A stretch of DNA of 64,000 bases, from positions 1,280,001 through 1,344,000 of the forward strand of contig OZ253462.1 of assembly GCA_965261395.1 (NCBI GenBank). The letters are read 5' to 3'. The position numbers and the translations under genes were made by a program. The DNA is from Candidatus Latescibacterota bacterium (lineage in GTDB: Bacteria > Latescibacterota > UBA2968 > UBA8231). Below the pieces are notes generated by a model. The model was not told where the DNA came from. It saw only the letters and a list, made by a program, of their open reading frames with translations, and did not search any database. Shown piece after piece: positions 5,113 to 52,241 of this stretch. The stretch's first letter is position 1. The number at the start of each line of letters is the position of its first letter.

Positions 5113-7404
5113 TTACTCTTTCGCACCCATACCGCCGAAGATTTCCTCAACCTGCTGCCGCGCTTGCCGTTGCGCCTTGTGCTCAAGGCGCTTTTCCCGG
5201 TTAGCGCGGGCATAGCGCGCCATATGCTCTTGGGCCGCGGCTGCTTCTCCCGTGCGTTTATACAAGTTGGCTAAGCAAAAATGCGTCTGGATCATTTGCG
5301 GATCGAGTTCCAGAACCCGCCCAAAATGCTCGATAGCCTCCTCATAGCGACCTAGTTTAGCCAGCATCATGCCCAGCCCCCAGTGCCCAGCCACGTCGTC
5401 CGGCTCCAACTCGACCGCTTGGCGGTGATGGGCTTCGGCCTCACTGATTCGGGCATTCGGCTTTAGGGGAAGAGTCTGTTGCTGGGCTCCTTCATGCGCC
5501 ACCAGCAGATTCGCCAGACGGGTGTGTAGCTCCGCTCTCTCTGGCTCGTCGCTCAATAGCCGGCGGTACTCTCTGGTAGCCGCCAGACTGTCCTGCGTCT
5601 CGTAGAGACGGGCCAACTGGTAGCGCACCACGCTCGAGTCGGGGCGGATCTCTAGGGTGCGGCGATAGGCACTCGCCGCCAAGATGGGTTTTCCGGCCAT
5701 CAGATAGGCATAGCCGAGACGGCCGAAGAGGGCTGCCCAGTCGGGCCGCAGCGCAGTGAGGTTTTCGTACTGGACGATGGCCTCTGGGTAGCGTCGAGCC
5801 GCCAGAAAGGCATGGCCCAACAGGAAGCGGGCCGGGGTGGCCTCCGGATTCTTTTTTACGTAGGTGCTATAGGCCTCAATGGCCTTGGCATGCTCCTGCC
5901 TTTCCCCGTAGAGCGCGGCCAGCCGCAGGAGAGCTTCCCCGTGATCGGGCTGACGCTCAAGCGCGATGCGGAACTCGTGTAGGGCATCGGCCTGCATCCC
6001 CTTTCGCACATAGGCATCCCCTAGGGCAAAATGCTCTTCGGCGCTCCCTACCATGTTCATGGAACCGATGCCGGTATTGACCGCCAGCGTCAAGGCGACA
6101 AAGAGGGGCCAGAGAATGATCTTCCGACCCCTAGACCGAAACATTTCGCTCAGGCCAAAACCGGCGAGGAGCAGGGCGAAAGGCACCGCCGGCAGGCGAT
6201 AGCGCGAAGTGACGAAAAACAGGACGACCGAAAGCATGTAAACCAGTAGGAAAAGCGCAGGCAGAGTCGCGGCACCAGCATCGGACCGACGCCACAGACA
6301 GACTATGCCGATCAGCGCCAGGGGGGCGACCAGACCGAAGGGAAAGGCCAACCCGTACTTCCACAGCAGGAGGCGCAGCACAGTAGAATCGCGCCGGGCG
6401 TAATACGGGTCGAGGTTGCGCTGGATTTCATCGCCGCGCCAGAAGAGACGGAGCTTGTGGGCCAGCAAGCGCAGATAGCCCAAGGGATCTGCGCTGATAA
6501 ACTGCCAGGATTGGGCAAAAAAATAGTGCGACTTGGCGGATGGCCGTTCTATCCCCGCTTCGATTTCGGGTTTTTCTACCAGCAGGGCCCAATCCCTTCC
6601 CGGACGGATATTGACCGTGCGCTCGTAATCGGGGTTGTTGCCGATGTAGAAGTTAATACCGGCGTTGTGCGAGATCAGCACCCAGTCGCCGCCCACCAGA
6701 TGGTTGCGCACCGTCACTGGGGCTATGGCCAGAGCGCAGCCCAGGAGCAGCAAAGCAGTACGCTTCGCCTTGTCGGCGTTGGGAATGGAATCTTCCAAGC
6801 GCCAGAGCCACCATACCACGACTGGCAGGAAGAGCAGGATGTTGGCCACGGCCAGTGCGGCCAAACCCATCAGCGCCCCCGCTAGTAGCCAGCGCTTGGA
6901 GTCGCCGTAGGGTGGCCGGACCACCGAGAGAAAGAACAGCAGGTTGAGGAAAATCGCCAGGCCGACTGGCAGCAACTCACCATCGAAGTAAATGAGAGGT
7001 CCGCAACAGGCGGCACCCAGAGCGGCACCTAGGGCGATTCCGGGCGCGAAGAGCCGGCGTCCTATGATTAGGAGCAAGATGCAGCTTCCCGCCCCTAACA
7101 AGGCTTGAACTAGGCGCGGCCAGTAGTAATTCTCCCCCCCGACCCCAAAGATCAGCGCCAGAAAGTAGGGATAGAGCGGTGGCTGCCAGAAGGGCTCAGG
7201 TGCGTCTGCCCAAGCCCCGCCGGCTAGGTCGAGCGCCATCTCGGTGTAGACTCTGGCGTCGATTACCGGCGCGTCGAAAAAGGGACTCGCGGCGCTTTCG
7301 TGGATGTACAATACTCGCAGAGCCAGAGCTAGGCAGCCGATCAACAGCGCCTGGCTCCAAGGCTGCTGCAACCAGTTTGTCTCCCCGTCCTTATAGACCT
7401 GCAT
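5113..7404 (-). CDS. GT-C (PMT/GT39-like) membrane glycosyltransferase with C-terminal TPR repeats
   Basis: DARVY..FWQPPLYPYFLA motif, many TM segments, NAGINFYIGNNP, RYRLP, then TPR repeats; start may be slightly downstream. Confidence 0.85.
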   Translation of the reverse strand: MQVYKDGETNWLQQPWSQALLIGCLALALRVLYIHESAASPFFDAPVIDARVYTEMALDLAGGAWADAPEPFWQPPLYPYFLALIFGVGGENYYWPRLVQALLGAGSCILLLIIGRRLFAPGIALGAALGAACCGPLIYFDGELLPVGLAIFLNLLFFLSVVRPPYGDSKRWLLAGALMGLAALAVANILLFLPVVVWWLWRLEDSIPNADKAKRTALLLLGCALAIAPVTVRNHLVGGDWVLISHNAGINFYIGNNPDYERTVNIRPGRDWALLVEKPEIEAGIERPSAKSHYFFAQSWQFISADPLGYLRLLAHKLRLFWRGDEIQRNLDPYYARRDSTVLRLLLWKYGLAFPFGLVAPLALIGIVCLWRRSDAGAATLPALFLLVYMLSVVLFFVTSRYRLPAVPFALLLAGFGLSEMFRSRGRKIILWPLFVALTLAVNTGIGSMNMVGSAEEHFALGDAYVRKGMQADALHEFRIALERQPDHGEALLRLAALYGERQEHAKAIEAYSTYVKKNPEATPARFLLGHAFLAARRYPEAIVQYENLTALRPDWAALFGRLGYAYLMAGKPILAASAYRRTLEIRPDSSVVRYQLARLYETQDSLAATREYRRLLSDEPERAELHTRLANLLVAHEGAQQQTLPLKPNARISEAEAHHRQAVELEPDDVAGHWGLGMMLAKLGRYEEAIEHFGRVLELDPQMIQTHFCLANLYKRTGEAAAAQEHMARYARANREKRLEHKAQRQARQQVEEIFGGMGAKE

Positions 7405-10042
7405 AGAAGGTGAGAAAGCTCTGCGTAATTGTCTCCGATGCCTGTGTCTTGAAGTTCTTGCGGTCGATCTTCACTCCGCCTTGCATAGTGAGTTGATATC
7501 CTTGGTAGGCGGATACGTTGGTGAATTGGGCCGCCCAGGCGATGCCGTTGAAGTCGTTGGAGTCGCGCACGAAATCGTTGGAGAAGGTCAGCTCCAACCC
7601 CGACTGGAAGCGAGTGTGAGCGAGCAGCGGCACGCTCAAGATAAAGCCGCCGATCTCCGCCAATTCTTCCCTCTCCTCGTGCGAGAAAAGGTCGAATGTC
7701 TGCCTACGGTACTCGCTTTTCCAACGTGGCTCGATCTGCAGCGCACCTAGGTCGAAGCGATAACTGAACTTGTTGATCAGACCGATGAAATAGTCCTGCT
7801 TGCGTAGGCTCAAGAGCGTGCGCTGTTCCTTATCGATACGCTGGCGATAAAACTCGTATTTGAAGAAGTTCTTGGTCCTGAACCCTCCCTGTTGGTAATC
7901 GTGGCCCGCCCATAGCGAATTGACCCAAGTGTCGGGGGCGAGGAGTGGGTCTTCGATCAGGGTCCCCTCGCCGGTGCGCAAAAGTGCGCCTGGCAGCCAC
8001 TGCAGCAGGTTGTCGGGAATATTGTCTTGCACCGATTTGAACGAATCGAAGAGACGGAATCGGCCCCACTCCGGCGTATCCTTGTCCAGGGTGAAGAGCA
8101 GATACTTGGAGATATTCTCGCGGTCGGCCGAGATCAACTCCTCACGCATCAGGCCGGCCGTGACGCGGATCTCGGGCGTGACGTGGGCACCGGCGTAGAT
8201 GTTGAATCCGCGGTGGTCCTTGCGATAGGGGTAGTCCGGTTCTTCGTCGTTTTCGAAGCGGTCGATCCAGATATTGTTATTCATGTCGATGCCGAAGAGA
8301 AACTCCGGTCGGTCGACGTTGTGGCGCAGGAAAGCCTCTTCGTAGTCGGGGGTGGAATTGGTTAAGAGCCGGTTGTCGTTCTGGTTAAAGTCGGAGATGA
8401 AATCGTTGTTCTCGTCCCAACCGGGGAAGACTGCGTTGTCGCCGTTGCGCGTGTCCATGCGGATGGTGTCGGCGAAGCGATCTTGGTCGTCGTTGTCAGC
8501 GACGAATTCCACCACGTAAATCCGCTCGTCCTCGTAGTCGATAAAGCCACCGGCATCCGAGGTGAAGGTGCTGGTATTATAGCGCGGATCCATGCTGTAA
8601 GCCTCGCCAAAGAAGAACCAGGGATAGGTGGACTTTGAGAGGTTCATCATCCAGGCCGGGGCCGACCGCTGTCCCTTGATGCCCGACGAGGTCGAGTGGC
8701 TTTTGGCGTTGATGTTCGGGTACTTGGTGTAGCTGTAGCTCAGGTCGTACTCGCCGTAGAAGTCAAAGCCCTTCACATCTCTCACCTCCACGGTGCCGCC
8801 CCATATCTGGGTGGCGGTGGGCAAACCGTATTGGAAACTCACCGTCCTCAGGTTCGTGTTGTCTTGGATATTGCCCTCGGCTTGGGCTACTAGGAGCAAC
8901 ACCGAGGTGTTGCTGGTGTTCAGTTGTCGGTCCGAAGTCATCCAGATCTGGTAGTCGTTGGCCAGCACCATCTGGAATTCGATGTTCTCGATCTGCTCCT
9001 TGGAGCCGCTCGAGCGGTTGAGGAAGGCCGGGCTGTCGAAATCGTAGCGCAGGCGGATCTGCTCGGTGCCATCAGCGGCGATAAATCCCTCGCGGATAAA
9101 ACCGCCTTGGATGATTGGTTCGAAGCGGATCTCCTTTCCCCGGTCCACGGTGCCGTCTCTATAAGTGATGATGATATCTGACCCGGCGGGGAAGAAGGCT
9201 GCGCCGCCTACCCCATCCTCGGGGCTGTCGTCGCGCAGCACGACCTCAATCGCCGAGACCGTGGCCTTTTGGTCGAGGGTGAGTTCACCTTGGATAGGGT
9301 TGCCCCGAAACCCATCGACGAGCGTATTGGACTGGTGGGCGTTGACATTGGTGAGGCCCATGGTGACGAAGTCGCCGACCTGGACGGTCAAGCGCCCGCC
9401 GGCCAGAGTCGTCATATTGGTGACCAGATTCTCCTGGTCCCGGGTCGAACTGCCTCCCGGACGGCTCAGACGCGAGAAAATGACGGTCCCCTGGTACTTG
9501 TCGGAAGCGAAATCGACTTGCACTCCGTCCCAGCGCGGCTTGGAAAAGGTCATCGGCGTCAGCGTCGAACGAATCTCGTTGCTCACCGTTACCGCATAGT
9601 GGTATTGGCCCTTAGTGTCGACTGAGATGAGCAGCCCGGAGAACCACTCTTGGAAACGCGACGACTTGAAAATGGAACTACCAAACTGCGCGGGCTGGAC
9701 TTGGGAGGTGTTGAAGATCAGCCAGCCCCGGCCGATATAACTCCCGTACAAGTCGTAAAAGTAGTCCCCTTCTAGGGTCGTATTGACGTAGCGCTGGAAG
9801 TTTTGCCGGGCGTAGTTTGAATATTCCCACTGCTTCCAGCGGTACTCGTTATAGAGTTCCTGGGGCACATACCACCGACGCACCGCCGGGTCCAGCGCCC
9901 CGAACATCACGCCGGCCCCCTGGGGTTCGTAAGTGACCTCCCCACCCCGTTGCACACCCAGACGGTTGCCGTAGTCCTGAGCCTGTACGACAGATACTAG
10001 GAAAGAGCAACATATAACGCATAGCAGGCAAGCTCGTCTCAC
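7391..10042 (-). CDS. Secreted hypothetical protein (883 aa), possible outer-membrane beta-barrel with acidic Ca-binding-like loops
   Basis: Signal peptide (VVQA-QDY), amphipathic strand pattern in C-terminal third, DxNxD-type repeats. Confidence 0.7.
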   Translation of the reverse strand: MRRACLLCVICCSFLVSVVQAQDYGNRLGVQRGGEVTYEPQGAGVMFGALDPAVRRWYVPQELYNEYRWKQWEYSNYARQNFQRYVNTTLEGDYFYDLYGSYIGRGWLIFNTSQVQPAQFGSSIFKSSRFQEWFSGLLISVDTKGQYHYAVTVSNEIRSTLTPMTFSKPRWDGVQVDFASDKYQGTVIFSRLSRPGGSSTRDQENLVTNMTTLAGGRLTVQVGDFVTMGLTNVNAHQSNTLVDGFRGNPIQGELTLDQKATVSAIEVVLRDDSPEDGVGGAAFFPAGSDIIITYRDGTVDRGKEIRFEPIIQGGFIREGFIAADGTEQIRLRYDFDSPAFLNRSSGSKEQIENIEFQMVLANDYQIWMTSDRQLNTSNTSVLLLVAQAEGNIQDNTNLRTVSFQYGLPTATQIWGGTVEVRDVKGFDFYGEYDLSYSYTKYPNINAKSHSTSSGIKGQRSAPAWMMNLSKSTYPWFFFGEAYSMDPRYNTSTFTSDAGGFIDYEDERIYVVEFVADNDDQDRFADTIRMDTRNGDNAVFPGWDENNDFISDFNQNDNRLLTNSTPDYEEAFLRHNVDRPEFLFGIDMNNNIWIDRFENDEEPDYPYRKDHRGFNIYAGAHVTPEIRVTAGLMREELISADRENISKYLLFTLDKDTPEWGRFRLFDSFKSVQDNIPDNLLQWLPGALLRTGEGTLIEDPLLAPDTWVNSLWAGHDYQQGGFRTKNFFKYEFYRQRIDKEQRTLLSLRKQDYFIGLINKFSYRFDLGALQIEPRWKSEYRRQTFDLFSHEEREELAEIGGFILSVPLLAHTRFQSGLELTFSNDFVRDSNDFNGIAWAAQFTNVSAYQGYQLTMQGGVKIDRKNFKTQASETITQSFLTFYAGL

Positions 10043-10061
10043 GAGGAAGGCTCCTTGTAAA

Positions 10062-13000
10062 TTAATAAGCTACATGTATCAATGTTGATCTCGTGGTGGG
10101 TCCGATGTCGTCGGCATCAACGGCGAGATCGACCTGCCCCAGATAGATCCCCGGCGGCACTCGTTGCCCTGTCTGATCTGTACCCGACCACACCACCGCC
10201 ACCTCACCACTGTGCACCGCCTGTCGGTGCTGCCACACCCGTCGGCCATCCAGCCGATACACATTCACCGTGGCCTGTCGCGTCGTCCCCAGTCGAAACA
10301 CCGAAAAGCCGATCGTCGTCTGGTCGTTGACCCCGTCGCCATTGGGCGTAAACGGGTTGGGATAGGCGGCAATCACGCCCAGCGGCTTTAGGTTCAAAGG
10401 CACCTGGATCGACAGCGCCTCCGACGCGACCTGCGCTGTCGCATCGCCGGCGGCCACTCCCTGCCAAGGCGCGTCTTGGGCGCTGCCCCCGGCCGTGTTG
10501 CGCACCGCTAGGTCCACCGTCGCTCCGTTGACGAACACCGGCGTAGCAAAACGCATCCGCAACAGCGGCCCTGCTCCCACGATCCGCCCCCGCCGCGCCG
10601 ACCCAAGCCCGTTGTAGGCTGCCGCGTCCAGTGAGTCGCCTGCGGCGTCAAAGGCAAATTGGCCTCCTTCGTCGAACAGGATGCGGAAGTAGCGATCCTC
10701 CCGCTCGTCCTCGGCCAACGCGTCGAACTCACTCTCATTGACTAGGGTTAGAGCCACCTCTCCGGTTGCCTCGACGGTGCGGCGGAAGTAGCGTCGGTCG
10801 CCCCGTTCCTCCGGTGCCAACTGGCCATAGCTCACCGCGGTCAATACCTGCCCCTGCCGGTCAATGGGCACCTGCTCCTGTTCGCTCATCACTTGGTAGT
10901 AGATCCGTTCATCGACCGTCCCCAGCGCATGCACTGCTGCAGGCAGGCGCACCCAGATCGAGTCCGACCGATCCTGCAACACTGTTAACAGCTGACCAGC
11001 TTCGTCAACAAACGACCCATCTGCCTGCGGACGAAAGACTTGGTCTTCGCCTAGGGCCAACTCCAACAGCGTCAGGTTCTCTGCCCCCGATAAGGTCAGT
11101 GCCACCTCGTCGAAACCGTCGCTGCGCACGCTGAAGGGCTGCTCGACGAAGAAGGGCTGGGCAAACACCTCAAACGTGTCGACCCGTCCGGGCACGGCCA
11201 CCTCGACCGGCCACAACTCAGCCTGCATCTGTTCCACCACCGGATTCAACAGTTCGATCTCAATGGCACCAATCGACGCGGCTTGGAAGCGATCTTGGGT
11301 GCGCAGTGCCACTTGCAGTTGCAGAAGACCGTGTTGCGCTGGCGCATTGACCCGGGTGCCTGGCTGCCGATAGCTGCGGCTCCAGTTGCTCCAGTCGCTG
11401 CCAGCGACAAAGGCGGTGTCGACGGGACCTTTGAAGCTGCCCATGAGATTGTTCCACTGTTTCTGGGTGATCTCGCTGCCGGACTTGTCGAAGTGGCGCA
11501 CGACCTTGCGCAGCAGACTGCCGGTGCGGCTGCGGAGGTCTAGTTCGGTGCCCGGCGGCGTTTCCCCTTCCCAGAAGATTCGTCCCAAGCTGCGTCCTGC
11601 TGGCAAGGCCATCAGGGCCGAGTGCAGCACCACCTCCGACGGGTAGCCCGCCGAAAATAGCTGGTACTCTGCGATTTTGGGACCCGGCGCATAGATGTCC
11701 AGGCTCTGGTCAATGATAGTGATCTCGATATAGCGAAGCTTTTGCGGCGAAGCGAAATTTTCGAGCAGATGCCGGAATCGGCTAATACTATTGTTTTCGC
11801 GCTCCAGCGAAGTCAGCCGCTTCCATTTGAGCCGACCATTGGTATCCCGCGTACCATCCGAGCCCAGCATCTTATAGCCCTCGACAATAGGCCAGGAAAA
11901 GGGAGCCGAGGTCCGCACCGCGTCGAGCCAGAAGGTCGCGCCCATGTCGATGGTCAACACCCCCCGATCCACGATCGCCGTCTTCTCGCGAAAGGGATGC
12001 ACGAAATTGGTGGCGTAATCCCCGTCGAAACCAGCCCCCGGACTGAAGCCATCCCCCGTCAAAGCTAGGCTGCCGCCACCGTCCAGCATTCTCGCAGTGA
12101 TATTGTCGCCATAGCCCCAGACTTCGATATCGGCCAGCCGGGGCCGCTCGCGGCGATAGTACTCCTTCCGACCCTGACGCGCCGCTGGCAAACCCTCATA
12201 CACCGAACGATCCACCGGCTCCTCGAAACCCTCCCGAACCTTGACGAAATGGACGATTTCGCCTTGGTCTGCTGTGGGCAACGCCTCCCACTCCGCCGCA
12301 GTCACCAGCCGACCCCGCGCGCCCTTGCTTTCCGTCACCACCACCCGCAAGGTCTCCACCATCCGACCCGTCCACTCCGGCGACGCCCGCGGCTGCGCAA
12401 AACCAAAACCGAAAAGCCGCTGATCCTCATTGGGGGCCGTCGTCCGCGCCACCAACTCAAACCCCACCTTCGCCACCTCCTCCATCACCGGCTTCTGATT
12501 CGGTGCCACCAACAGCCGAAACTGGCGAAACGGATCCCCCAGCGACGCCTCGACAAAGTGCAACACCACCGAATCCACCACCGCCACCCGACCCAGATCC
12601 ACCTCCACCCACCAGTCGTCCAAAGGTGCCGCCGCATCCGGCTCCCAATACGTCGTCGGATCTCCGTCCAGAATCGCCGCCGCATCCGCCCCATTCGAGC
12701 CCACTCGACTGATCCCCATCCGCATCAGATAGGTATAGACCGGCACATTCTTCCCGCTTTTCTTCTGCGTCAGCACATTGCCGCGGATATCCAGTGTTAG
12801 GGTGCTGTCCAGATTCAGAATTGCCGTTTGCGTCCGGCCCCGCTTGAAGTCCTTCAAGGCCCGTTGGAACGTCGCTCGATCATCCAGCAGGCTATAGCGG
12901 CCACGAAAGCGATGCGGCACTACCACTCCCGTCGGCTCTACCTCCACCGCGTGTGTCGGCAGGGTCCATGCCCGCCAGTGCGCCGCGGTCTCCACCACCA

Positions 13001-13130
13001 GCCGATCCTCGCTGAGCCGATAGCCCGCTCCCTCTTGCGCAATCGCGCCACTGCCTGCCACAAGCAATCCTATGGCCCATAAAAAGAAACAGCCGCGACC
13101 CAAACGGGAACCTAAAACCGTGCCCTTCAT
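10062..13130 (-). CDS. Large secreted FlgD-Ig-tailed family protein with two discoidin-like domains, copy A (1022 aa)
   Basis: Signal peptide; LDGDPTTYW..VEVDLGR and FDGDYAT..IDMGATFWLD motifs; NPFTPNGDGVND tail. Confidence 0.85.
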   Translation of the reverse strand: MKGTVLGSRLGRGCFFLWAIGLLVAGSGAIAQEGAGYRLSEDRLVVETAAHWRAWTLPTHAVEVEPTGVVVPHRFRGRYSLLDDRATFQRALKDFKRGRTQTAILNLDSTLTLDIRGNVLTQKKSGKNVPVYTYLMRMGISRVGSNGADAAAILDGDPTTYWEPDAAAPLDDWWVEVDLGRVAVVDSVVLHFVEASLGDPFRQFRLLVAPNQKPVMEEVAKVGFELVARTTAPNEDQRLFGFGFAQPRASPEWTGRMVETLRVVVTESKGARGRLVTAAEWEALPTADQGEIVHFVKVREGFEEPVDRSVYEGLPAARQGRKEYYRRERPRLADIEVWGYGDNITARMLDGGGSLALTGDGFSPGAGFDGDYATNFVHPFREKTAIVDRGVLTIDMGATFWLDAVRTSAPFSWPIVEGYKMLGSDGTRDTNGRLKWKRLTSLERENNSISRFRHLLENFASPQKLRYIEITIIDQSLDIYAPGPKIAEYQLFSAGYPSEVVLHSALMALPAGRSLGRIFWEGETPPGTELDLRSRTGSLLRKVVRHFDKSGSEITQKQWNNLMGSFKGPVDTAFVAGSDWSNWSRSYRQPGTRVNAPAQHGLLQLQVALRTQDRFQAASIGAIEIELLNPVVEQMQAELWPVEVAVPGRVDTFEVFAQPFFVEQPFSVRSDGFDEVALTLSGAENLTLLELALGEDQVFRPQADGSFVDEAGQLLTVLQDRSDSIWVRLPAAVHALGTVDERIYYQVMSEQEQVPIDRQGQVLTAVSYGQLAPEERGDRRYFRRTVEATGEVALTLVNESEFDALAEDEREDRYFRILFDEGGQFAFDAAGDSLDAAAYNGLGSARRGRIVGAGPLLRMRFATPVFVNGATVDLAVRNTAGGSAQDAPWQGVAAGDATAQVASEALSIQVPLNLKPLGVIAAYPNPFTPNGDGVNDQTTIGFSVFRLGTTRQATVNVYRLDGRRVWQHRQAVHSGEVAVVWSGTDQTGQRVPPGIYLGQVDLAVDADDIGPTTRSTLIHVAY

Positions 13131-16100
13131 GGCTTCCTCTAATCGGGAGTCGGCAAACTATGACTATATCTGCAAAACCCAATCTGGTCGGCGACCGCTG
13201 GGCGATCTTACAGACACAATCCAATATTTACCGGCTCTCAATAAGCTACGTGTAGCAATGTTGATCTCGTGGTGGGTCCGATGTCGTCGGCATCAACGGC
13301 GAGATCGACCTGCCCCAGATAGATCCCCGGCGGCACCCGTTGCCCCGCCTGATCCGTACCTGACCACACCACCGCTACCTCACCGCTTTGCACTACCTGT
13401 CGATGCTGCCACACCCGTTGACCGTCCAGCCGATACACATTCACCGTGGCCTGTCGCGTCGTCCCCAGTCGAAACACCGAAAAGCCGATCGTCGTCTGGT
13501 CGTTGACCCCGTCGCCATTGGGCGTAAACGGGTTGGGATAGGCGGCAATCACGCCCAGCGGCTTTAGGTTCAAAGGCACCTGGATCGACAGCGCCTCCGA
13601 CGCGACCTGCGCTGTCGCATCGCCGGCGGCCACTCCCTGCCAAGGCGCGTCTTGGGTGCTGCCCCCGGCCGTGTTGCGCACCGTCAGGTCCACCGTCGCT
13701 CCGTTGACGAACACCGGCGTAGCAAAACGCATCCGCAACAGCGGCCCTGCTCCCACGATCCGCCCCCGCCGCGCCGACCCAAGCCCGTTGTAGGCTGCCG
13801 CGTCCAGTGAGTCGCCTGCGGCATCAAAGGCAAATTGGCCTCCTTCGTCGAACAGGATGCGGAAGTAGCGATCCTCCCGCTCGTCCTCGGCCAACGCGTC
13901 GAACTCACTCTCATTGACCAGGGTTAGAGCCACCTTTCCGGTTGCCTCGGCGGTGCGGCGGAAGTAGCGTCGGTCGCCCCGTTCCTCCGGTGCCAACTGG
14001 CCATAGCTCACCGCGGTCAATACCTGCCCCTGCCGGTCAATGGGCACCTGCTCCTGTTCGCCCATTACTTGGTAGTAGATCCGTTCATCGACCGTCCCCA
14101 GCGCATGCACTGCCGCAGGCAGGCGCACCCAGATCGAGTCCGACCGATCCTGCAACACTGTTAATAGCTGACCAGCTTCGTCAACAAACGACCCATCTGC
14201 CTGCGGACGAAAGACTTGGTTTTCGCCTAGGGCCAACTCCAACAGCGTCAGGTTCTCTGCCCCCGACAAGGCTAGTGCCACCTCGTCGAAACCGTCGCTG
14301 CGCACGCTGAAAGGCTGCTCGACGAAGAAGGGCTGGGCGAACACCTCAAAGGTGTCGACCCGCCCCGGCACCGCTATCTCGATCGGCCACAACTCAGCCT
14401 GCATCTGTTCCACCACCGGATTCAACAGCTCGATCTCAATGGCACCGATTGACGCAGCTTGGAAGCGGTCTTGGGTGCGCAGTGCCACTTGCAGTTGCAG
14501 AAGACCGTGTTGCGCTGGCGCATTGACCCGGGTGCCTGGCTGCCGATAGCTGCGGCTCCAGTTGCTCCAGTCGCTGCCAGCGACAAAGGCGGTGTCGACG
14601 GGACCTTTGAAGCTGCCCATGAGATTGTTCCACTGTTTCTGGGTGATCTCGCTGCCGGACTTGTCGAAGTGGCGCACGACCTTGCGCAGCAGACTGCCGG
14701 TGCGGCTGCGGAGGTCTAGTTCGGTGCCCGGCGGCGTTTCTCCTTCCCAGAAGATTCGTCCCAAGCTGCGTCCTGCTGGCAAGGCCATCAGGGCCGAGTG
14801 CAGCACCACCTCCGACGGGTAGCCCGCCGAAAATAGCTGGTACTCCGCGACATTAGGCCCGATGCACCACATACAGAGATCACCGGCATTGGGATTGGTA
14901 ATGGTAATCTCGATATAGCGAAGCTTTTGCGGCGAAACAAATTTTTCGAGCAGGTGTTCGAAGAGATTATCGCGGTTGTTTTCGCGCGCCACTGATGTCA
15001 GCCGCTCCCACTTGAGCTGGCCATTGGTATCCCGCGTGCCATCCGAGCCCAGAATCTTATAGCCGTCGATAAAGGTCCTGGGCAAGGTCGAGGACGTCCG
15101 CACCGCGTCGAGCCAGAAGGTCGCGCCCATGTCGATGGTCAATACCCCCCGATCCACGATCGCCGTCTTCTCGCGGACCACGTGCGGAAAGGAGGTGGAA
15201 AAGTCGCCATCGAACGCCCCAACCGGACTGAAACCATCCCCGGTCAAAGCGAGGTTGCCGCCACCTTCCACCATGCCCATACTGATATTGTCGCCGTAGC
15301 CCCAGACTTCGATATCGGCCAGCCGGGGCCGCTCGCGGCGATAGTACTCCTTCCGACCCTGACGCGCCGCTGGCAAACCCTCATACACCGAACGATCCAC
15401 CGGCTCCTCGAAACCCTCTTCGTCGACGATAAAGTGGACGATTTCGCCTTGGTCTGCTGCGGGCAACGCCTCCCACTCCGCCGCAGTCACCAGCCGACCC
15501 CGCGCGCCCTTGCTTTCCGTCACCACCACCCGCAAGGTCTCCACCATCCGACCCGTCCACTCCGGCGACGCCCGCGGCTGCGCAAAACCAAAACCGAAAA
15601 GCCGCTGATCCTCATTGGGGGCCGTCGTCCGCGCCACCAACTCAAACCCCACCTTCGCCACCTCCTCCATCACCGGCTTCTGATTCGGTGCCACCAACAG
15701 CCGAAACTGGCGAAACGGATCCCCCAGCGACGCCTCGACAAAGTGCAACACCACCGAATCCACCACCGCCACCCGACCCAGATCCACCTCCACCCACCAG
15801 TCGTCCAAAGGCGCCGCCGCATCCGGCTCCCAATACGTCGTCGGATCTCCGTCCAGAATCGCCGCCGCATCCGCCCCATTCGAGCCCACTCGACTGATCC
15901 CCATCCGCATCAGATAGGTATAGACCGGCACATTCTTCCCGCTTTTCTTTTGCGTCAGCACATTGCCGCGGATGTCCAGCGTTAGGGTGCTGTCCAGATT
16001 CAGAATCGCCGTTTGCGTCCGGCCCCGCTTGAAGTCCTTCAAGGCCCGTTGGAACGTCGCCCGATCATTCAGCAGGTTGTAGCGACTGCGAAAGCGATGC

Positions 16101-16300
16101 GGCACTACCACTCCCGTCGGCTCTACCTCCACCGCGTGTGTCGGCAAGGTCCATGCCCGCCAGTGCGCCGCGGTCTCCACCACCAGCCGATCCTCGCTGA
16201 GCCGATAGCCCGCTCCCTCTTGCGCAATCGCGCCACTGCTTATCACAAGCAATCCTATGGCCCACAAAAAGAAACAGCCGCGACCCAAACGGGAACCCAA
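10062..16300. repeat. Tandem direct duplication of a ~3.1 kb gene (period ~3176-3185 bp)
   Basis: Long identical DNA runs, e.g. 11290-11660 vs 14470-14840 and 12290-12760 vs 15475-15945. Confidence 0.95.
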
Positions 16301-16315
16301 AATCAGACCTCTCAT
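13238..16315 (-). CDS. Large secreted FlgD-Ig-tailed family protein, copy B (1025 aa)
   Basis: Near-identical to 10062..13130 except for clustered patches in the second discoidin-like domain. Confidence 0.85.
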   Translation of the reverse strand: MRGLILGSRLGRGCFFLWAIGLLVISSGAIAQEGAGYRLSEDRLVVETAAHWRAWTLPTHAVEVEPTGVVVPHRFRSRYNLLNDRATFQRALKDFKRGRTQTAILNLDSTLTLDIRGNVLTQKKSGKNVPVYTYLMRMGISRVGSNGADAAAILDGDPTTYWEPDAAAPLDDWWVEVDLGRVAVVDSVVLHFVEASLGDPFRQFRLLVAPNQKPVMEEVAKVGFELVARTTAPNEDQRLFGFGFAQPRASPEWTGRMVETLRVVVTESKGARGRLVTAAEWEALPAADQGEIVHFIVDEEGFEEPVDRSVYEGLPAARQGRKEYYRRERPRLADIEVWGYGDNISMGMVEGGGNLALTGDGFSPVGAFDGDFSTSFPHVVREKTAIVDRGVLTIDMGATFWLDAVRTSSTLPRTFIDGYKILGSDGTRDTNGQLKWERLTSVARENNRDNLFEHLLEKFVSPQKLRYIEITITNPNAGDLCMWCIGPNVAEYQLFSAGYPSEVVLHSALMALPAGRSLGRIFWEGETPPGTELDLRSRTGSLLRKVVRHFDKSGSEITQKQWNNLMGSFKGPVDTAFVAGSDWSNWSRSYRQPGTRVNAPAQHGLLQLQVALRTQDRFQAASIGAIEIELLNPVVEQMQAELWPIEIAVPGRVDTFEVFAQPFFVEQPFSVRSDGFDEVALALSGAENLTLLELALGENQVFRPQADGSFVDEAGQLLTVLQDRSDSIWVRLPAAVHALGTVDERIYYQVMGEQEQVPIDRQGQVLTAVSYGQLAPEERGDRRYFRRTAEATGKVALTLVNESEFDALAEDEREDRYFRILFDEGGQFAFDAAGDSLDAAAYNGLGSARRGRIVGAGPLLRMRFATPVFVNGATVDLTVRNTAGGSTQDAPWQGVAAGDATAQVASEALSIQVPLNLKPLGVIAAYPNPFTPNGDGVNDQTTIGFSVFRLGTTRQATVNVYRLDGQRVWQHRQVVQSGEVAVVWSGTDQAGQRVPPGIYLGQVDLAVDADDIGPTTRSTLLHVAY

Positions 16316-18600
16316 GGTTTACTCCTCGCGATTTCGTAGTCCGTGTTGCCTTCGGTCAGGCGGATGACGCTATTGGCGGGAATATGCTCCCAACTCTGAC
16401 GGTGCCCGCTGGGCCAGCGGATCTCTAGGCGGTCGACCATTTCTTTGTCGCCTAGTCCTAGATGCAGTGCTGGGGCGTTGCTCGAACCAAAGCCGTAACC
16501 GCTGGACACCTCGGCATGTACCTGATGATCGCCGCTATGTAGGGACACGCGGGCCCCAATACCGTCTCGATTGCTCTCGGTCCCTCTGGTTATCACTGCC
16601 AGGAAGTGGCCGTTTTCACCGTCGTTGCGATACAGACTATTGGGCCATACGTCCCCGTCATAATGGCCCCCCAACCCGGCGTAGAGATCCATATCGCCGT
16701 CGCCGTCGAAATCGGCGAACGTGGCACCGTGCCCCTTGCCCAGATTGCCCACCCCAGCCTCTGCGGTGATATCCGCAAAAGTTCCGTCGCCCCGATTGAG
16801 CAAGAGGGTATTGGGTTCAAGGCGGTACATCTCCGGACCGCCATTGGCTAGATAAATATCGGCGAAACCATCATTGTCGATATCGCTCACGCCGATGCCC
16901 ATCGTACTAAAGGAACGGCCTAGGCCAGCCTCGACCGTCGCATCGGTAAAGGTGCCGTCACCGTTATTGCGGTAGAGGAAGGGCCGATTGAGTTGGTTAT
17001 TCTGTCCCTCGACCATACTGTTGAGCATCCCTTCGAGGCTACTCATCGTCGCGACAAAAAGATCTAGGGCCCCGTCATTATCGTAGTCGAAGAAAAACGC
17101 GACGTACCCCCCTTCGAGGGGAAAAAGCACGTCGGCTTGTGCCGCCCGGTCGGTGAAGGTTCCGTCGCCATCATTGTGGTAGAGCCGATTGGGCTGGCCG
17201 ATATTCACCGCATAGAGATCCGGATAACCATCGCCGTCGTAGTCTCCAAAGGCGCAGCCGATAGTCTTACCCGGATCGGCGACTCCGGCACTTGCAGCCA
17301 CGTCAGCAAAGACACCGTTTTGGCTATTGCGATACAGGTTGTTATTTCCCCCGTCCCCCAAAACCCCGTTGGCCACATAGAGGTCGAGGTAGCCGTCTAG
17401 GTCGTAGTCGCCCCAGGTCGCGGTAAAACTGCAAGCTAAATCGACCATCCCCACCTGCAAGGCGACGTCGACATACTCGCCTTGGTCATTGCGGTAGAGA
17501 GAATTGGCTGCCTTGCCCTCCCAGGCGTCCCGCGTGACGAAAAGATCCGCGTCTCCGTCATTGTCGAAATCGGCACGGGCAGCACCCCACCCCCCTCGCA
17601 CGTCGGCCAACCCCGTCGTCTCTGTCACCGCGTGGAAACGCCCGTCCCCGTCGTTGCGGTAAAGTGCGTGCAAAGTTCGGATCCCTACCGAAAATAGGTC
17701 TGGATCCCCGTCGAGGTCGTAATCGAGCCAAGCGCTGCCCCGGCCTCGGTCGATTTTGTCCACCCCGGCTGAGGGGGCAATATCGGCGAAGCGGACCGAC
17801 GTGGAAGCGGGCACGGATTCGCGGGCCACAAGTCGATAACGGTCCGGCAAACTCGTAGGATAACCCTCCCAATAGACCAGTTTGATCAGCCAGAGTGCCT
17901 TCAGACGTTCCGCGTACTGGTCCAGCGACAGATTCACCGCTCGCTGCAGAAACGGCATAGCCGCTGGCCCATCGCCCTTCCACAAGGCGGCAGTACCTGC
18001 CAACAGAGTAAGCGTATAGCTCTCGGGATACTGCTGTGTTAGTTGCCGGCCCAATTCCAGTGCCTGCTCGAACCGCCCCAATCTCAACTCGGCTTTAAGC
18101 AGCATCAGCGCGGCGCGGCTTTCTTGGGGTACCGCGTGCAAGATTTCCCGGCACAACTTGCGAGTCTGTTCCAGATCCATGGCAAAGTCAGCGCGCAAAC
18201 CTAGCTGTGCCAACAACAGCTTGGCGTCAATGGAGCGAGGATGGCTTTTTAGAACCTCTTCGGCCAGCGTTCGGGCCTCGGCAATTCGTCGCTCCGAACT
18301 CAGCAACCGGGCATGCAGAATCTGGATTTCGGGACGCTCTAAGTCCTCTCCGGCTATTGTTTTTAGCATCTGCATGGTAGCTTCCCTCTGGTCCATCGCC
18401 AAATAGATCTCGCACAACCTCACTTGGGCTACGGTACTGTCGGGTGCTAGGCGCAAACAGCGCTGAAAATGCTCGGCGGCTTCTTTCCACTGCCCGGCCC
18501 GAAAAAATTCCATGCCCTCGCTATAGAGCTTATCCGCCTCTTTGGGGGGACTGCCGCAGCCGACCCCCAACACCGCCCAGAACACGATCCAAGGTATCAC
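16312..18600 (-). CDS. TPR + FG-GAP/ASPIC-UnbV (CRTAC1 family) lipoprotein
   Basis: Lipobox-like GVGC; TPRs; repeated DxDxDGxxDL/LYRNxGDGTF; C-terminal RDGIGARV..LHLGLG..IRWPSG. Confidence 0.9.
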   Translation of the reverse strand: MIPWIVFWAVLGVGCGSPPKEADKLYSEGMEFFRAGQWKEAAEHFQRCLRLAPDSTVAQVRLCEIYLAMDQREATMQMLKTIAGEDLERPEIQILHARLLSSERRIAEARTLAEEVLKSHPRSIDAKLLLAQLGLRADFAMDLEQTRKLCREILHAVPQESRAALMLLKAELRLGRFEQALELGRQLTQQYPESYTLTLLAGTAALWKGDGPAAMPFLQRAVNLSLDQYAERLKALWLIKLVYWEGYPTSLPDRYRLVARESVPASTSVRFADIAPSAGVDKIDRGRGSAWLDYDLDGDPDLFSVGIRTLHALYRNDGDGRFHAVTETTGLADVRGGWGAARADFDNDGDADLFVTRDAWEGKAANSLYRNDQGEYVDVALQVGMVDLACSFTATWGDYDLDGYLDLYVANGVLGDGGNNNLYRNSQNGVFADVAASAGVADPGKTIGCAFGDYDGDGYPDLYAVNIGQPNRLYHNDGDGTFTDRAAQADVLFPLEGGYVAFFFDYDNDGALDLFVATMSSLEGMLNSMVEGQNNQLNRPFLYRNNGDGTFTDATVEAGLGRSFSTMGIGVSDIDNDGFADIYLANGGPEMYRLEPNTLLLNRGDGTFADITAEAGVGNLGKGHGATFADFDGDGDMDLYAGLGGHYDGDVWPNSLYRNDGENGHFLAVITRGTESNRDGIGARVSLHSGDHQVHAEVSSGYGFGSSNAPALHLGLGDKEMVDRLEIRWPSGHRQSWEHIPANSVIRLTEGNTDYEIARSKP

Positions 18601-20075
18601 CGGCGCTGCTCCAACTGCGCCAGCATCTCGCGGGCCTTCGCGTGGCTGGGGTTGAGTTTGAGGACGGTCTCGAAGGCGCTCTTGGCTTCCGCGTAGGCAT
18701 CCTCCTTCATCAGGGCGAGCCCCAACGAGTAGCGGGCTCGCAGGAAGGAGGGGTCGATGACGACACTCTGATCGAAACAGGCTCGGGCTTGGCGATACTT
18801 GCCTTGCTTCAGATAGATAGTTCCTAGGTAAAAATAAGCCCCGCTATGGTCTGGCTCGCTATCCAGAACTTGGCGCAGCACGGCGATGGACTCCGGCAGA
18901 TTGCCGAGTACCAGATGAGAACGGCCCAACCCGTAAAGGGCCCGCGCCGAAGTGGGCGCTATACTCAGGGCTTCGACAAAGGTCAGCAGTGCGACTTTGG
19001 GGTCATCAGCCATCAGCAACGCCTCGCCTAGCATACAGTGTATATCCGGGTCCCCGGCGTCGAGACGCAAGGCTTGCTGCAACCTCGGAATGGCTTTTTC
19101 CGGCATTTTCTGCCGCATGAGGGTTTGCCCCATTCTTAGGTAGGCGTCGAGCAAGCTCGTATCGGCTGCGACCGCCTGCGTCCAGGAGGTTATGGCTTGC
19201 TCCCACTCACCCCGCTTGGCAAAAATTGCCCCTTGGTCGAAGTGCTTCTGCGCCGTGCTCAAACGGCGAAACGCCGCCAACTCGACTTCGGCTTCCCGCC
19301 GCCGGTCCGTCTGCTGGTAGGCCTGTCCTAGGAGATAGCGGGCGCTGGCGGCTCTCGGGTCTAGGTCAATTGCTCGCCGGAGTATATCGGCGGCATCTTG
19401 GTGGCGATCTAGCTGGCTGTAGAGGCGGCCTAGGTCCAGATGGGCCGCTAGGTGGCCGGGATCCAACTCCAGTACGCGCCGGTATCCCTCTTCCGCCTCG
19501 ATCAGGCGGTTGCTGCGCGCCAGCATGTCGCTAAGATAGTAATAAGCTTTCACATGAGTGGAATCCAGGCGGATAACCTCCTCGAACGCCGCTAAGGCAC
19601 CAGTGAAATCGGCACTGGCCCTAAGGGCTTCTCCCGTGAAGTAATGGCACTCGGGGCGCTCGGGTGCAAGCTCGGCGGCTTGGGCAAAAAAGTCTGCCGC
19701 TTCTCTATCGCGGCGCTGGGCCCGCAACGAGCCCCCCAGGGCTAAATAGAGCTCCGCAGTCGGCGGTCCCAGCTCGAGGGCGCGTTCAAAAGCCGCTACC
19801 GCTTCGGCGTGCCGTCCCAGCCGCTCGTAGGCCAAACCCATATTGAAGTGGGGCTCGACCATGGCGGGGATTTTCTCCACCGCCTCCTTGAGCGCGGCCA
19901 GCGCGCGCTGAGGTCTTCCCTGTTGCAGAAAGAGCACTCCTCGGCCGGTCAGCAGCAGACCTTGCCGCCGGAGTTTTTCCGCCGCTACATCCGAGTTAGC
20001 TGCCGGTTCGTGCTGGCTGCACCCTGTAATCAGCAGCATCGCAATGAACGTGGCTTTTTCCACAAGAGAGGGCAT
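18597..20075 (-). CDS. TPR repeat lipoprotein
   Basis: LITGC lipobox; consecutive 34-aa TPR motifs throughout. Confidence 0.9.
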   Translation of the reverse strand: MPSLVEKATFIAMLLITGCSQHEPAANSDVAAEKLRRQGLLLTGRGVLFLQQGRPQRALAALKEAVEKIPAMVEPHFNMGLAYERLGRHAEAVAAFERALELGPPTAELYLALGGSLRAQRRDREAADFFAQAAELAPERPECHYFTGEALRASADFTGALAAFEEVIRLDSTHVKAYYYLSDMLARSNRLIEAEEGYRRVLELDPGHLAAHLDLGRLYSQLDRHQDAADILRRAIDLDPRAASARYLLGQAYQQTDRRREAEVELAAFRRLSTAQKHFDQGAIFAKRGEWEQAITSWTQAVAADTSLLDAYLRMGQTLMRQKMPEKAIPRLQQALRLDAGDPDIHCMLGEALLMADDPKVALLTFVEALSIAPTSARALYGLGRSHLVLGNLPESIAVLRQVLDSEPDHSGAYFYLGTIYLKQGKYRQARACFDQSVVIDPSFLRARYSLGLALMKEDAYAEAKSAFETVLKLNPSHAKAREMLAQLEQRR

Positions 20076-20081
20076 CAGCGC

Positions 20082-21731
20082 TCAATTTTCCACCAATTCG
20101 TCTGGTAGGGCCTGTTGCAACTGCGACTCATCGATTGTTATTTGCGACGCGTATTTGGATCTCAGCTCTTTAACTAGGGACTCCAATCCCCGATTTTCCC
20201 ACTGTCTGCGCACCAGCGCTCGGGCCCTGCGGCTCGAACTGGCGAACGGTTCGAGCTTACTTTCTGCGCGGCGCAGGACGCGGAACAGGGAAAAACCGTC
20301 GTTGACCTCCACCGGGCCGATCAGTCCTCCCGGTTCAGCGGCCATGATGGCTGGCACCAACTTGGGATAGAGCACCTTTTCGCGCGGATGAAAGTGAAAC
20401 TGGGCCGCGTTCTTGACAGCGCTTTTGCGCTGGCTATGTTCGGCCAACTCGCCGAAGGTGGTCCCGGCCTCCAGTTCCAATTTCACCTGCCGAGCTTCAA
20501 CCTCCGTAGAGAGCAGCAACTCTTCGACCCACGCCGCCGCTTCGTGGTGGAAAAGCTCCGGACGGTTGTCATAAAACTGGCGCGCCTCTTCCTCTGAGAC
20601 GTCAATCTGCTGGGTTATAGCGACCTTTTTCAAGGTCTCCAGCAACGCGTCCTCCAGCCGCTCTTGCTCCAACTGGCGAATTTCCGGTTCGTCGTAGATC
20701 CCAGCTCGCTTGGCCGCTTCCGCCAGCAGGAAGGGACGCAGAATTGTCTTCCTCAGTCCGACGAGAGGGCCGGAGCTATCGGCTAGGACCCGGTAGAGGA
20801 GCATTCGCTGGGAACCCCGCAGCACTTCGCGTAGCGAGATTTCGCCCTTGTCGTAGTGGTATAATCCGCTCGGGTCCGTAGCCAAACGGTCCAGAGCTTT
20901 CGTGCGAAAAGCCTCTACCAGTTTGTTCAGTACCTCCGCGTCCAAGCGCAGTTGGAAAGCCCTCTCCAACTCCTCGAGGTGCTCATCCTCGGCCTGCATT
21001 TCCCGCTCCCTAATCAGGCGCGAGCGAATGAAATCGCCGAATTTGCCAAAATCTCCCGGTCGTTCCTCGGTAAAGCGGACCACGTGCCAGCGGCCGGCTG
21101 CATTAAGGGGTTCGGACACCGCGCCCAGAGGCAGTGTACGGAAAACGTCGAGCGGCACATTGAGTCGCAGGGCCATGTTTGGATCGATAAAGCCCAACTC
21201 ACCACCCTGCTCGGCCGAGCGCTTGTCCAGCGACCGGGTCCGGGCCACTTCTTCAAAGGGTTCCCCGCGCCGCAACTTTTCTGCAACATCGAGAATATCC
21301 TCACGGCTGTCTACCAGAATGGCGTAGAGCTTGCGCTCCACATCGTAGCCTTCCGCGTCGAAGCGATGGCGCACTTCTTCTTCCGTCACTGAAATTTTGG
21401 CATCGATTTCCCGATGCCGATAGAGATTTCGCGCCCGGGCGTCGATGGCGCTTCGGACCGCCGTGCGCACGGCCTCGGTGGTATCCAAGCCACGCGCCCG
21501 GGCTTCCATGAGCAATAGTCGGCCATCCACCAGATCCTGCAAGTAGCGTCTGCGGGCGTCGTCGCCTCGCTCTTCTATGCGCAATCCCTCGGGCAGGTCG
21601 GCGACAAAGGCGCGCAGGGAAGTGGCGGAGATCGAATGCGGGCCCACTTGGGCAACGGCGGGATCTGGTGCTTGGTCGCATCCCGTTGTCACGCCAATAG
21701 CACTTATATACACAACCCACCAAAATTTCAT
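20082..21731 (-). CDS. PpiC/parvulin-type peptidyl-prolyl isomerase lipoprotein (SurA/PrsA-like, two rotamase domains)
   Basis: FEEVARTRSLD..GGELGFI and FGELAEHS..GPVEV motifs; start reassigned to MKFWWVV..TTGC (ORF-track start overlaps upstream gene). Confidence 0.85.
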   Translation of the reverse strand: MKFWWVVYISAIGVTTGCDQAPDPAVAQVGPHSISATSLRAFVADLPEGLRIEERGDDARRRYLQDLVDGRLLLMEARARGLDTTEAVRTAVRSAIDARARNLYRHREIDAKISVTEEEVRHRFDAEGYDVERKLYAILVDSREDILDVAEKLRRGEPFEEVARTRSLDKRSAEQGGELGFIDPNMALRLNVPLDVFRTLPLGAVSEPLNAAGRWHVVRFTEERPGDFGKFGDFIRSRLIREREMQAEDEHLEELERAFQLRLDAEVLNKLVEAFRTKALDRLATDPSGLYHYDKGEISLREVLRGSQRMLLYRVLADSSGPLVGLRKTILRPFLLAEAAKRAGIYDEPEIRQLEQERLEDALLETLKKVAITQQIDVSEEEARQFYDNRPELFHHEAAAWVEELLLSTEVEARQVKLELEAGTTFGELAEHSQRKSAVKNAAQFHFHPREKVLYPKLVPAIMAAEPGGLIGPVEVNDGFSLFRVLRRAESKLEPFASSSRRARALVRRQWENRGLESLVKELRSKYASQITIDESQLQQALPDELVEN

Positions 21732-21805
21732 TAACAAGACCCTCTTCACAGACGAGAAATAGAATCGGGCAAGGACGGGCACTGCACGAGTCGCGGCCTC
21801 GGGAC

Positions 21806-21857
21806 AATAGAAAGCCCCTGTCTCGTTCCAGCGTGGGCTGTCAAACGAAACAGGGGC
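21806..21857 (-). terminator. Intrinsic terminator or stabilising hairpin after the 305-aa gene
   Basis: GCCCCTGTTTCGTT...AACGAGACAGGGGC stem followed by TTTCTATT on minus strand. Confidence 0.65.
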
Positions 21858-21894
21858 GAAACTACTGCTGGGAACGATCGGTCTCCAGATTCGC

Positions 21895-48319: not shown

Positions 48320-48326
48320 CCGAACC

Positions 48327-52205: not shown

Positions 52206-52241
52206 GATGTGGGACAATTTAGGGCGATGTCTAAGAGAAGA

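Follow-up and report, generated by a model that had tools for sequence, protein, structure and literature searches.

How do two adjacent genes come to be nearly the same sequence over most of their length, and yet differ sharply in six short segments of a single region? The question is raised by genes A and B, which lie in tandem on a 64,000-nucleotide (nt) stretch of a Candidatus Latescibacterota genome (assembly GCA_965261395.1, contig OZ253462.1). The stretch, hereafter the window, corresponds to positions 1,280,001-1,344,000 of a single-contig genome of 6.55 Mb, and window coordinates are used throughout unless stated otherwise. The answer that we favour, with a probability of about three in four, is concerted evolution by gene conversion, in which the variable loops are held apart as two specificities and mosaic heads arise occasionally. 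The two genes are as follows.

10062..13130, minus strand: gene A, 1022 amino acids (aa), from the open reading frame (ORF) and its translation
13238..16315, minus strand: gene B, 1025 aa, with the architecture of A and B-type loops

The duplicated unit is approximately the ORF itself: beginning 9 nt ahead of the start codon and ending with the stop codon, it has 93.9% identity over 3088 nt. In A, a signal peptide (called by eye only) is followed by an N-terminal beta domain, a first CBM32/discoidin domain, a hairpin plus CBM32-like head that carries the A-type loops, a stalk of beta-sandwich domains and, finally, a C-terminal domain of the type IX secretion system (T9SS) type. Across 3078 aligned columns there are 192 nt differences between the copies; 77 of 1025 residues differ, and 70 codons show silent differences only. 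The amino-acid differences are far from evenly spread: residues 285-492, representing 20% of the length, hold 55 of the 77 (binomial p 6e-22), and this same segment contains 33 adjacent-difference pairs, where permutation gives 14.3 on average and 24 at most (none of 10,000 permutations reached 33). The clustering reported in a preliminary description of this DNA is, therefore, real, and the six pairs of patches listed there, together with a 3-aa indel, are all present exactly as quoted. In A, the patches are:

12234..12245, minus strand: patch 1, VKVR, residues 296-299, at the tip of the beta-hairpin preceding the CBM32-like core
12081..12098, minus strand: patch 2, TARMLD, residues 345-350, in the loop after strand 332-340
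11991..12038, minus strand: patch 3, GAGFDGDYATNFVHPF, residues 365-380, aligning with the DGD..T.W segment of the NagH CBM32
11880..11906, minus strand: patch 4, APFSWPIVE, residues 409-417, in the loop between strands 391-408 and 419-424
11772..11807, minus strand: patch 5, LERENNSISRFR, residues 442-453, a short helix and loop before strand 454-472
11673..11714, minus strand: patch 6, IDQSLDIYAPGPKI, residues 473-486, in the loop between strands 454-472 and 485-493

Their counterparts in B, placed by the A/B alignment, are:

15419..15430, minus strand: patch 1, IVDE
15266..15283, minus strand: patch 2, SMGMVE
15176..15223, minus strand: patch 3, VGAFDGDFSTSFPHVV
15065..15091, minus strand: patch 4, STLPRTFID
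14957..14992, minus strand: patch 5, VARENNRDNLFE
14849..14899, minus strand: patch 6, TNPNAGDLCMWCIGPNV

The indel lies in patch 6, where the A form is 3 aa shorter than the B form. Five of the patches had been assigned to the second discoidin-like domain, and this holds, with patches 2-6 in a core spanning residues ~338-499 and patch 1 on the preceding hairpin; in an AlphaFold2 (AF2) model, all six are in coil or turn between predicted strands. The framework between them, described previously as invariant, is slightly less uniform than that word allows, with ~7 non-synonymous and ~20 synonymous differences in the head.

Estimates of non-synonymous (dN) and synonymous (dS) divergence between A and B, by the method of Nei and Gojobori, divide the pair into alternating blocks: dS is 0.00-0.03 over codons 91-284, 493-614 and 701-960, and 0.14-0.46 over codons 1-90, 285-492, 615-700 and 961-1025. 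Additionally, three long tracts are identical in the two genes:

A 12276..12626 = B 15461-15811, minus strand: 351-nt tract, codons 169-285, most of CBM32 domain 1
A 11293..11564 = B 14469-14740, minus strand: 272-nt tract, codons 526-615
A 10249..10480 = B 13425-13656, minus strand: 232-nt tract, codons 887-963

All three exceed the longest tract (231 nt) seen among 10,000 random placements of 192 differences, and a contig from an independent run (X8) switches copy exactly at a boundary of the 351-nt tract. Gene conversion between the tandem copies has occurred repeatedly and has reached into the head between the loops. The homogenisation of the framework by this process, as originally proposed, is borne out by the identical tracts, by the low A-B dS and by the incongruence of head and rest in the topology tests described below. 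A second paralogue pair in the same genome (handle G000), with 95% identity over 777 aa, served as a control:

G000 2299410-2301959, minus strand, and G000 5374984-5377314, plus strand: control paralogue pair, 3 Mb apart

Here the differences are scattered without loop clustering, and the latter is, therefore, not general to young duplicates in this genome.

Within the head, the framework has dS 0.22, dN 0.022 and omega 0.10, and the head as a whole has omega 0.34. The 64 patch codons have dN 0.61 and pN 0.42, with pS at 0.75, i.e. saturated. Because these synonymous sites are saturated and the codons multiply hit, dN/dS is not computable for the patches, and the positive selection suggested at the outset does not follow from these data. 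The silent differences are nevertheless informative through their positions: among codons no more than two positions from an amino-acid difference, 23 of 59 carry one, against 6 of 89 farther away (Fisher p 3e-6). Silent divergence that clusters at the patches in this way is the mark of old retained DNA, rather than of a recent burst of amino-acid changes.

A third sequence, from another species of the genus (G016; genome 88% complete), bears directly on the age of the patches. It is a partial orthologue covering residues 254-749 on a contig of 1482 nt, and its six patches are all A-type. In the patches, A and G016 agree against B at 71 nt sites, and A and B agree against G016 at 12; in the head framework the corresponding counts are 14 and 59. 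Between A and G016, the patches have dN 0.040 and dS 1.23, and the A-type loops have thus been held constant while their silent sites approached saturation. Outside the head, over codons 493-614 and 701-749, dS is 0.00-0.05 between A and B versus 1.0-2.2 between A and G016. The same comparison can be made at silent sites within the head: at those six or more codons from an A/B amino-acid difference, A and B differ at 1/53, A and G016 at 19/48, and B and G016 at 20/48, whereas at those one or two codons away the values are 23/59, 20/54 and 24/54, respectively. Given the contrast of 1/53 with 19/48 at the distant sites, A and B continued to be homogenised in the inter-loop strands well after their loop sets had parted. 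On this evidence, the loops and their one or two flanking codons are islands whose age at least equals that of the species split.

These numbers also bear on a quite different history, in which the duplication was recent, the framework is alike simply since the copies are young, and a burst of positive selection rewrote the loops of B. The three-way comparison places patch changes at 71 sites on the B branch and at 9 on the A branch, as such a burst would predict, and the patch dN of 0.61 far exceeds the framework dS of 0.22. Against this, the silent divergence near the patches is as great between A and B (23/59) as between A and G016 (20/54), and loops resembling those of B occur both in orthologues that are ~64% identical and in a head from a sister lineage that is 92% identical to that of B. 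Together with the rejection of an (A,B) clade for the head by the tests that follow, this makes a recent burst very improbable.

With the B head as query, 82 proteins were retrieved, and the closest 15 were aligned. Head identity follows type (A-P0011 98%, A-P0012 92%, A-P0014 90% and B-P0005 92%, compared with 75% for A-B), and identity in the rest of the protein follows lineage: A and B are 98% identical, P0011 is at 96%, P0005 and P0012 are 95% identical to each other, the two groups are 87% identical and P0014 is at 83%. Accordingly, the maximum-likelihood tree of the head contains an A-type clade (support 100/99) that leaves out B and P0005, and that of the rest contains (A,B)+P0011 and (P0005,P0012)+P0006. 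In approximately unbiased (AU) tests, for which the groups were defined with the identity tables already in view, the type clade is rejected for the rest (p 3e-84; second test p 3e-129), and the groups (A,B,P0011) and (P0005,P0012) are rejected for the head (p 3e-5 and 2e-4). When the patch columns are removed, the type signal in the head disappears, and the resulting tree leans to lineage, albeit poorly resolved. Outgroups that are ~64% identical (P0007-10 and P0015) are closer to the B states than to the A states in almost all patches, the C-x-x-C loop among them, and it follows that the B-like form is the older state and the A form is derived. Moreover, a pair from this more distant set, P0010/P0017 (~64% identical to A), is 94% identical in the rest and 73% in the head, which holds 62 of 123 differences, 34 of them in the same six patches; this suggests that the pattern of a shared body and a different head recurs in the family. 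P0017 has a third form of loop 6, without cysteines.

The sharing of head types between lineages, at 92% identity against 87% in the rest, could also be taken as a sign that the head or single loops were imported from a diverged strain or species by homologous recombination, such that the islands would mark breakpoints rather than selection against conversion. Mosaic heads with breakpoints between loops would fit an import of this kind, as would the lack of any B-type head in 30 other species of the genus. However, the inter-loop framework tracks lineage and not type, and because of this an import would take six separate micro-tracts, or else a later round of conversion anyway. In addition, both types occur together in seven assemblies (judged by equal contig size) and in the sister lineage, and there is no donor-like sequence elsewhere in the genome. 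We, therefore, consider allelic import unlikely.

The preliminary description had likened the patches to hypervariable segments of antibodies. This does not stand: there are only two discrete loop sets, each conserved between strains and species. A and B each fall in a 90%-identity cluster of 25 members, 15 of which are listed per cluster, and all 30 of these were aligned. In the A cluster, 13 of the 15 listed members are A-type in every patch present and two are mosaics; in the B cluster, 13 of 15 are B-type in every patch present and one is a mosaic. One listed member of each cluster is a shortened protein without patch 1. Over ~28 close relatives from metagenomes, conservation of each set amounts to 97-99%. 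Between assemblies, the heads are better conserved (98.7% for A and 97.4% for B) than the rest (96.0% and 95.3%, respectively). Seven A-type/B-type pairs sit on same-sized contigs, from which we infer that the two proteins are co-resident in seven assemblies; the members of a pair share 97.8% identity in the rest, and in 9 of 14 cases no sequence is closer than the partner.

Heads of mixed composition were found in P0091 and P0098 (both ABAAAA, patches 1 to 6) and in P0107 (ABBBBB); the sister lineage contributes P0006 (ABBAAA) and P0012, and P0013, which lies farther out, reads B-like, B, B, A, A-like, A-like. Among the pairs, P0091 and P0098 (contigs both 15833) have ABAAAA twice, and P0101 and P0107 (both 13139) combine BBBBBB with ABBBBB. 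Near-identity of head type in both copies would be what is expected if conversion had almost homogenised the heads in these cases. One reading of such mosaics is that the six loops are separable specificity modules, re-assorted by short-tract conversion into combinatorial binding sites on a fixed scaffold, with the tandem arrangement kept for evolvability. We regard this as possible but doubtful; if true, the locus would be a natural loop-shuffling system for a surface lectin in a symbiont population.

The tandem arrangement itself has been questioned, the preliminary description having raised the prospect that the pair is a chimera of two strains. An assembly artefact that fused the alleles of co-existing strains would not be surprising in a genome of metagenome-type source with an estimated contamination of 8%, as near-identical flanks ease mis-joins. 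Contigs from the Logan resource, taken from four runs of four studies and placed on 11500-15600, speak against it. Both heads are covered in all four runs, two of them showing 0 differences and the other two as many as 5 per ~300 nt (A head). Two runs, each from a different study, contain contigs that span positions 13083-13285 (the start of A, the spacer and the stop of B) with 0 differences. In all four runs, the depth of the A head equals that of the B head and is about half that of the shared tracts (42 and 43 versus 69-79 in X8; 63.6 and 63.5 versus 148 in X1). The depths and the junction fit two copies in one genome, and with the seven assemblies that have one protein of each type on same-sized contigs, they make a mis-assembly highly improbable. 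No between-sample variation of the heads was seen in these contigs. Other runs, labelled as sponge metagenomes, have small word shares of the stretch, and these were not used as evidence of habitat.

The near-invariance of both heads, in the four runs and in the 30 listed members, is also pertinent to programmed diversification of the loops, whether by hypermutation through a diversity-generating retroelement (DGR) or by switching from silent cassettes of the pilS or vls type. In favour of either is that the differences are restricted to short segments, located in a ligand-binding-type domain of a surface protein. A third copy of the 660-nt variable region was sought in the 6.55-Mb genome (blastn, word size 7), and none was found above 69% identity, the best match (68-69%) being a paralogue. 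The sole reverse transcriptase (RVT_1) in the genome is at 2.31 Mb, ~1 Mb from the locus. Of the 117 nt differences in the head, 72 involve no adenine in either copy and 57 no T in either, and transitions are about as frequent as transversions. A DGR target was accordingly rejected, there being no template repeat, no adjacent reverse transcriptase and no restriction to adenine, in agreement with what had been concluded from the sequence at the start; antigenic variation from cassettes, as in pilE/pilS or vlsE, was likewise set aside, given the lack of extra copies and the two stable types. We consider that programmed variation has next to no chance of being the explanation.

The interpretation of the loops depends on the fold of the domain that bears them. 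In both proteins, the Pfam family F5_F8_type_C matches residues 145-210 (40.1 bits in A; cut-off 28.2), corresponding to domain 1. An AF2 model of full-length A, built with 81 homologues, has a mean predicted local distance difference test score (pLDDT) of 85.5 and a predicted template-modelling score (pTM) of 0.71. In Foldseek, this model matches tandem discoidin pairs (neuropilin b1b2, an F-lectin, factor Va C1-C2 and ZmpB CBM32-1/-2), as well as macroglobulin-like beta-sandwich arrays and PorU. The limits of the head core are:

11634..12119, minus strand: CBM32-like head core of A, ~residues 338-499, containing patches 2-6; from the head model, Foldseek and VIA
14810..15304, minus strand: CBM32-like head core of B, ~residues 338-502, containing patches 2-6; by alignment to A

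A model of the head only (residues 283-500, 36 sequences) has a pLDDT of 73. CBM32 modules rank first among its Foldseek matches (E 3e-6 to 1e-4, TMt up to 0.77), and in VIA it superposes on 4a42_B, a CBM32 from Clostridium perfringens, with Z 13.6 and 2.5 Å root-mean-square deviation over 126/126 aligned positions (model residues 59-212); many more CBM32 matches follow with Z 10.7-12. Against the Protein Data Bank, a profile of the head weakly matches the C. perfringens NagH CBM32, with the DGD..T motif among the aligned positions. On the strength of the matches to the head model and of the NagH profile, we take the head to be a predicted second CBM32-like domain with a hairpin in front. In CBM32 modules, variable loops at the sandwich's apex or edge are described as building the sugar-binding site, and specificity as shifting with the apical loops (PMC5291390, PMC3313936, as far as the available portions of these papers go). 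The presence of the patches in the loops of a predicted lectin-type domain fits a difference in binding specificity. Pairs of cysteines had been said to recur in similar positions across the family, and this was confirmed in part: a C-x-x-C motif occurs in loop 6 of 8/81 homologues and in loop 4 of 4/81. The C-M-W-C loop belongs to the B head core, and CTTASSTSAPGC, from the paralogue at 41790-44207, aligns with loop 6; CPDGTC, however, sits in the ORF at 2903-5029, which has only the C-terminal domain in common with A and B.

As regards export, CHU_C (PF13585) matches the extreme C-terminus of A and B with 32.2 and 32.5 bits, respectively (cut-off 27; residues 923-1002 in A), and FlgD_ig matches there more weakly, under its cut-off.

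A 10125..10364, B 13304-13540, minus strand: T9SS-type C-terminal sorting domain (CHU_C/FlgD_ig), from Pfam

The genome encodes a PorU sortase (NF033707, 618 bits against a cut-off of 420) and the SprA translocon (SprA_N, PF14349, 78 bits against a cut-off of 27, in an ORF of 2164 aa), which makes type IX export of A and B plausible.

In terms of mechanism, A and B would be an old tandem pair of type-IX-secreted, multi-domain proteins located at the cell surface, each presenting two CBM32/discoidin-type lectin domains on a stalk. Non-reciprocal recombination between the direct repeats keeps about four-fifths of the coding sequence near-identical, including the strand framework of the second domain, and the six loop segments of this domain and its hairpin escape homogenisation and last as two discrete conserved sets. 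The B type is ancestral-like, with its C-x-x-C loop, and the A type derived, with the shorter loop 6 and without those cysteines. On the simplest account, the loops would form the binding site, each set would constitute a different one, and the two would most likely recognise different glycans or other surface ligands. Cells with both would presumably be favoured, and conversions that overwrite a loop would mostly be lost, with selection, rather than a failure of recombination, holding the loops apart, although strong local divergence may also block the extension of heteroduplex. Rare conversions entering the head would generate the mosaic heads, with breakpoints between loops.

Several observations weigh against concerted evolution with selected loops. 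Genomes of 30 other species of the genus were searched without yielding a B-type head, the best match being the A-type head of G016 (70%), followed by matches of no more than 62%; an old pair, therefore, needs loss or non-assembly of the B type in G016 and in others. Selection on the loops is a deduction, the saturated patch sites yielding no dN/dS, and sequence divergence by itself could impede conversion without any selection. The co-residence of A and B in metagenomic assemblies is read from equal contig sizes, and in one such pair, P0011/P0103, the rest is only 93.5% identical, with the partner ranking 13th of 13. The apparent constancy of the heads between samples was seen in contigs, which drop rare variants. 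With respect to the fold, the head falls below every Pfam threshold, F5_F8_type_C finding only domain 1, and its profile match to CBM32 has an E value of just 0.03. The best structural match, CBM32-6 of CpGH89, is reported as non-binding in the accessible part of PMC3313936, and for this reason the fold alone does not show lectin activity. Finally, five of the loops are consecutive inter-strand segments, which a simple sandwich would place alternately at its two ends.

The genes that surround the pair belong to a larger arrangement. The immediate neighbours and the spacer are:

13131..13237, minus strand: spacer of 107 nt separating the B stop from the A start, unrelated and outside the duplicated unit
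16312..18600, minus strand: gene for a TPR, FG-GAP and UnbV/ASPIC protein upstream of B, from the ORF and Pfam
7391..10042, minus strand: 883-aa cassette partner downstream of A, without a Pfam family, with 46 copies in the genome, usually after a family member

The start codon of B overlaps the stop codon of the upstream FG-GAP/ASPIC gene by 4 nt (16312-16315), which suggests translational coupling of B with that gene. Gene A has a 107-nt leader of its own, which does not resemble the sequence upstream of B. The spacer (13131..13237) yielded no site like a terminator or a promoter; in a scan of 9800-16700, the single promoter-like site fell within gene A and there was no terminator, and shuffled DNA yields as many sites or more. 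Elsewhere in the window, the G+C content falls to 0.40-0.47 at ~50000-54000, compared with ~0.60 in the remainder, and this stretch may be a foreign island.

In the genome, 143 ORFs of at least 300 aa are matched by gene A; the match covers several domains in 59, and in most of the others it is confined to the C-terminal domain. Family members within the window are at 571-2691, 2903-5029, 41790-44207 and 46169-48340. The partner families (883-aa, PMT_2+TPR and FG-GAP/TPR) have 46-52 matches each. A cassette that recurs at least seven times consists of a SurA-like peptidyl-prolyl isomerase, (TPR), a discoidin-family gene, the 883-aa protein and a PMT_2+TPR membrane protein; it is found at 5113-22812 (minus strand) in the window and at ~7 other places (e.g. 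G000 533428, 2002584, 2484251, 4963153 and 6242651). Only at the A/B locus is the discoidin gene in tandem; the other cassettes hold one family member. In relatives, the 883-aa partner has 39-49 matches in four of the five genomes searched and 28 in G016. An Atlas look-up placed this protein in uncharacterised clusters and gave the TonB-like barrel family DUF6029 at 0.89, as a lead only. A scan of metagenomes of the Joint Genome Institute (JGI; alignment A1) had its nearest loci at 50-51% identity, with no close relatives among them. No paper on this Latescibacteria discoidin family was found in a literature search, and by term search PMC12993501, on metagenome-assembled genomes of sponge Latescibacterota, includes carbohydrate-binding modules only in its tally of carbohydrate-active enzymes, with no mention of the family.

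Bacterial surface paralogues and vertebrate receptor families offer well-known cases of concerted evolution in which divergent segments are retained. Among the former, babA/babB of Helicobacter pylori and opa of Neisseria are surface-protein paralogues that undergo gene conversion and retain diverged segments. The tandem lpl paralogue cluster of Staphylococcus aureus is described in similar terms, as evolving in concert through gene conversion with divergent segments retained (PMC2568036, in the part available). What A and B have in common with all three is that paralogues are closer than orthologues in identity over most of their length, that mosaic boundaries are sharp and some genes chimeric, and that the products are surface or ligand-binding proteins. 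They differ in that the retained divergence takes the form of six loop-sized islands (4-17 codons) in one beta-sandwich domain, the strands of which are homogenised, and in that there are just two stable types, with no sign of phase or antigenic variation, in an uncultured Latescibacterota bacterium. In vertebrates, the major histocompatibility complex (MHC) is a receptor family that has escaped concerted evolution under selection. A selection-driven escape is likewise reported for CEACAM (PMC8860441 and PMC7042247, each in the portion accessible). The resemblance lies in paralogues that are homogenised by conversion and in which the ligand-contact parts stay or become different; those systems, however, are arms races between host and pathogen, in which alleles are many and positive selection can be measured, whereas here there are two types, and each set is under purifying selection. 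The C. perfringens CBM32s of CpGH89 and CpGH31 are likened to the A/B head by its predicted fold and by the weak DGD..T profile match; unlike them, the head falls below the F5_F8_type_C model, is not accompanied by an enzyme domain and is known as a predicted fold only. With DGRs acting on targets of C-type-lectin fold, the pair shares a concentration of variation in the presumed ligand-binding surface of a bacterial cell-surface protein, but not the template repeat, the nearby reverse transcriptase, the adenine pattern or variation within the population.

The A/B pair reveals no new mutational mechanism. What is less usual is the loop-by-loop resolution within one lectin-fold domain, in an uncharacterised family of an uncultured phylum: the locus would give a view, at the level of single loops, of how conversion and selection split a domain into a homogenised scaffold and two fixed loop sets, and the pair may be useful as a natural experiment on specificity in the CBM32/discoidin scaffold. 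It also flags a very large T9SS-tailed protein family and a repeated gene cassette in Latescibacterota that may be associated with sponges. A role for the family in the surface recognition of host or food glycans is plausible.

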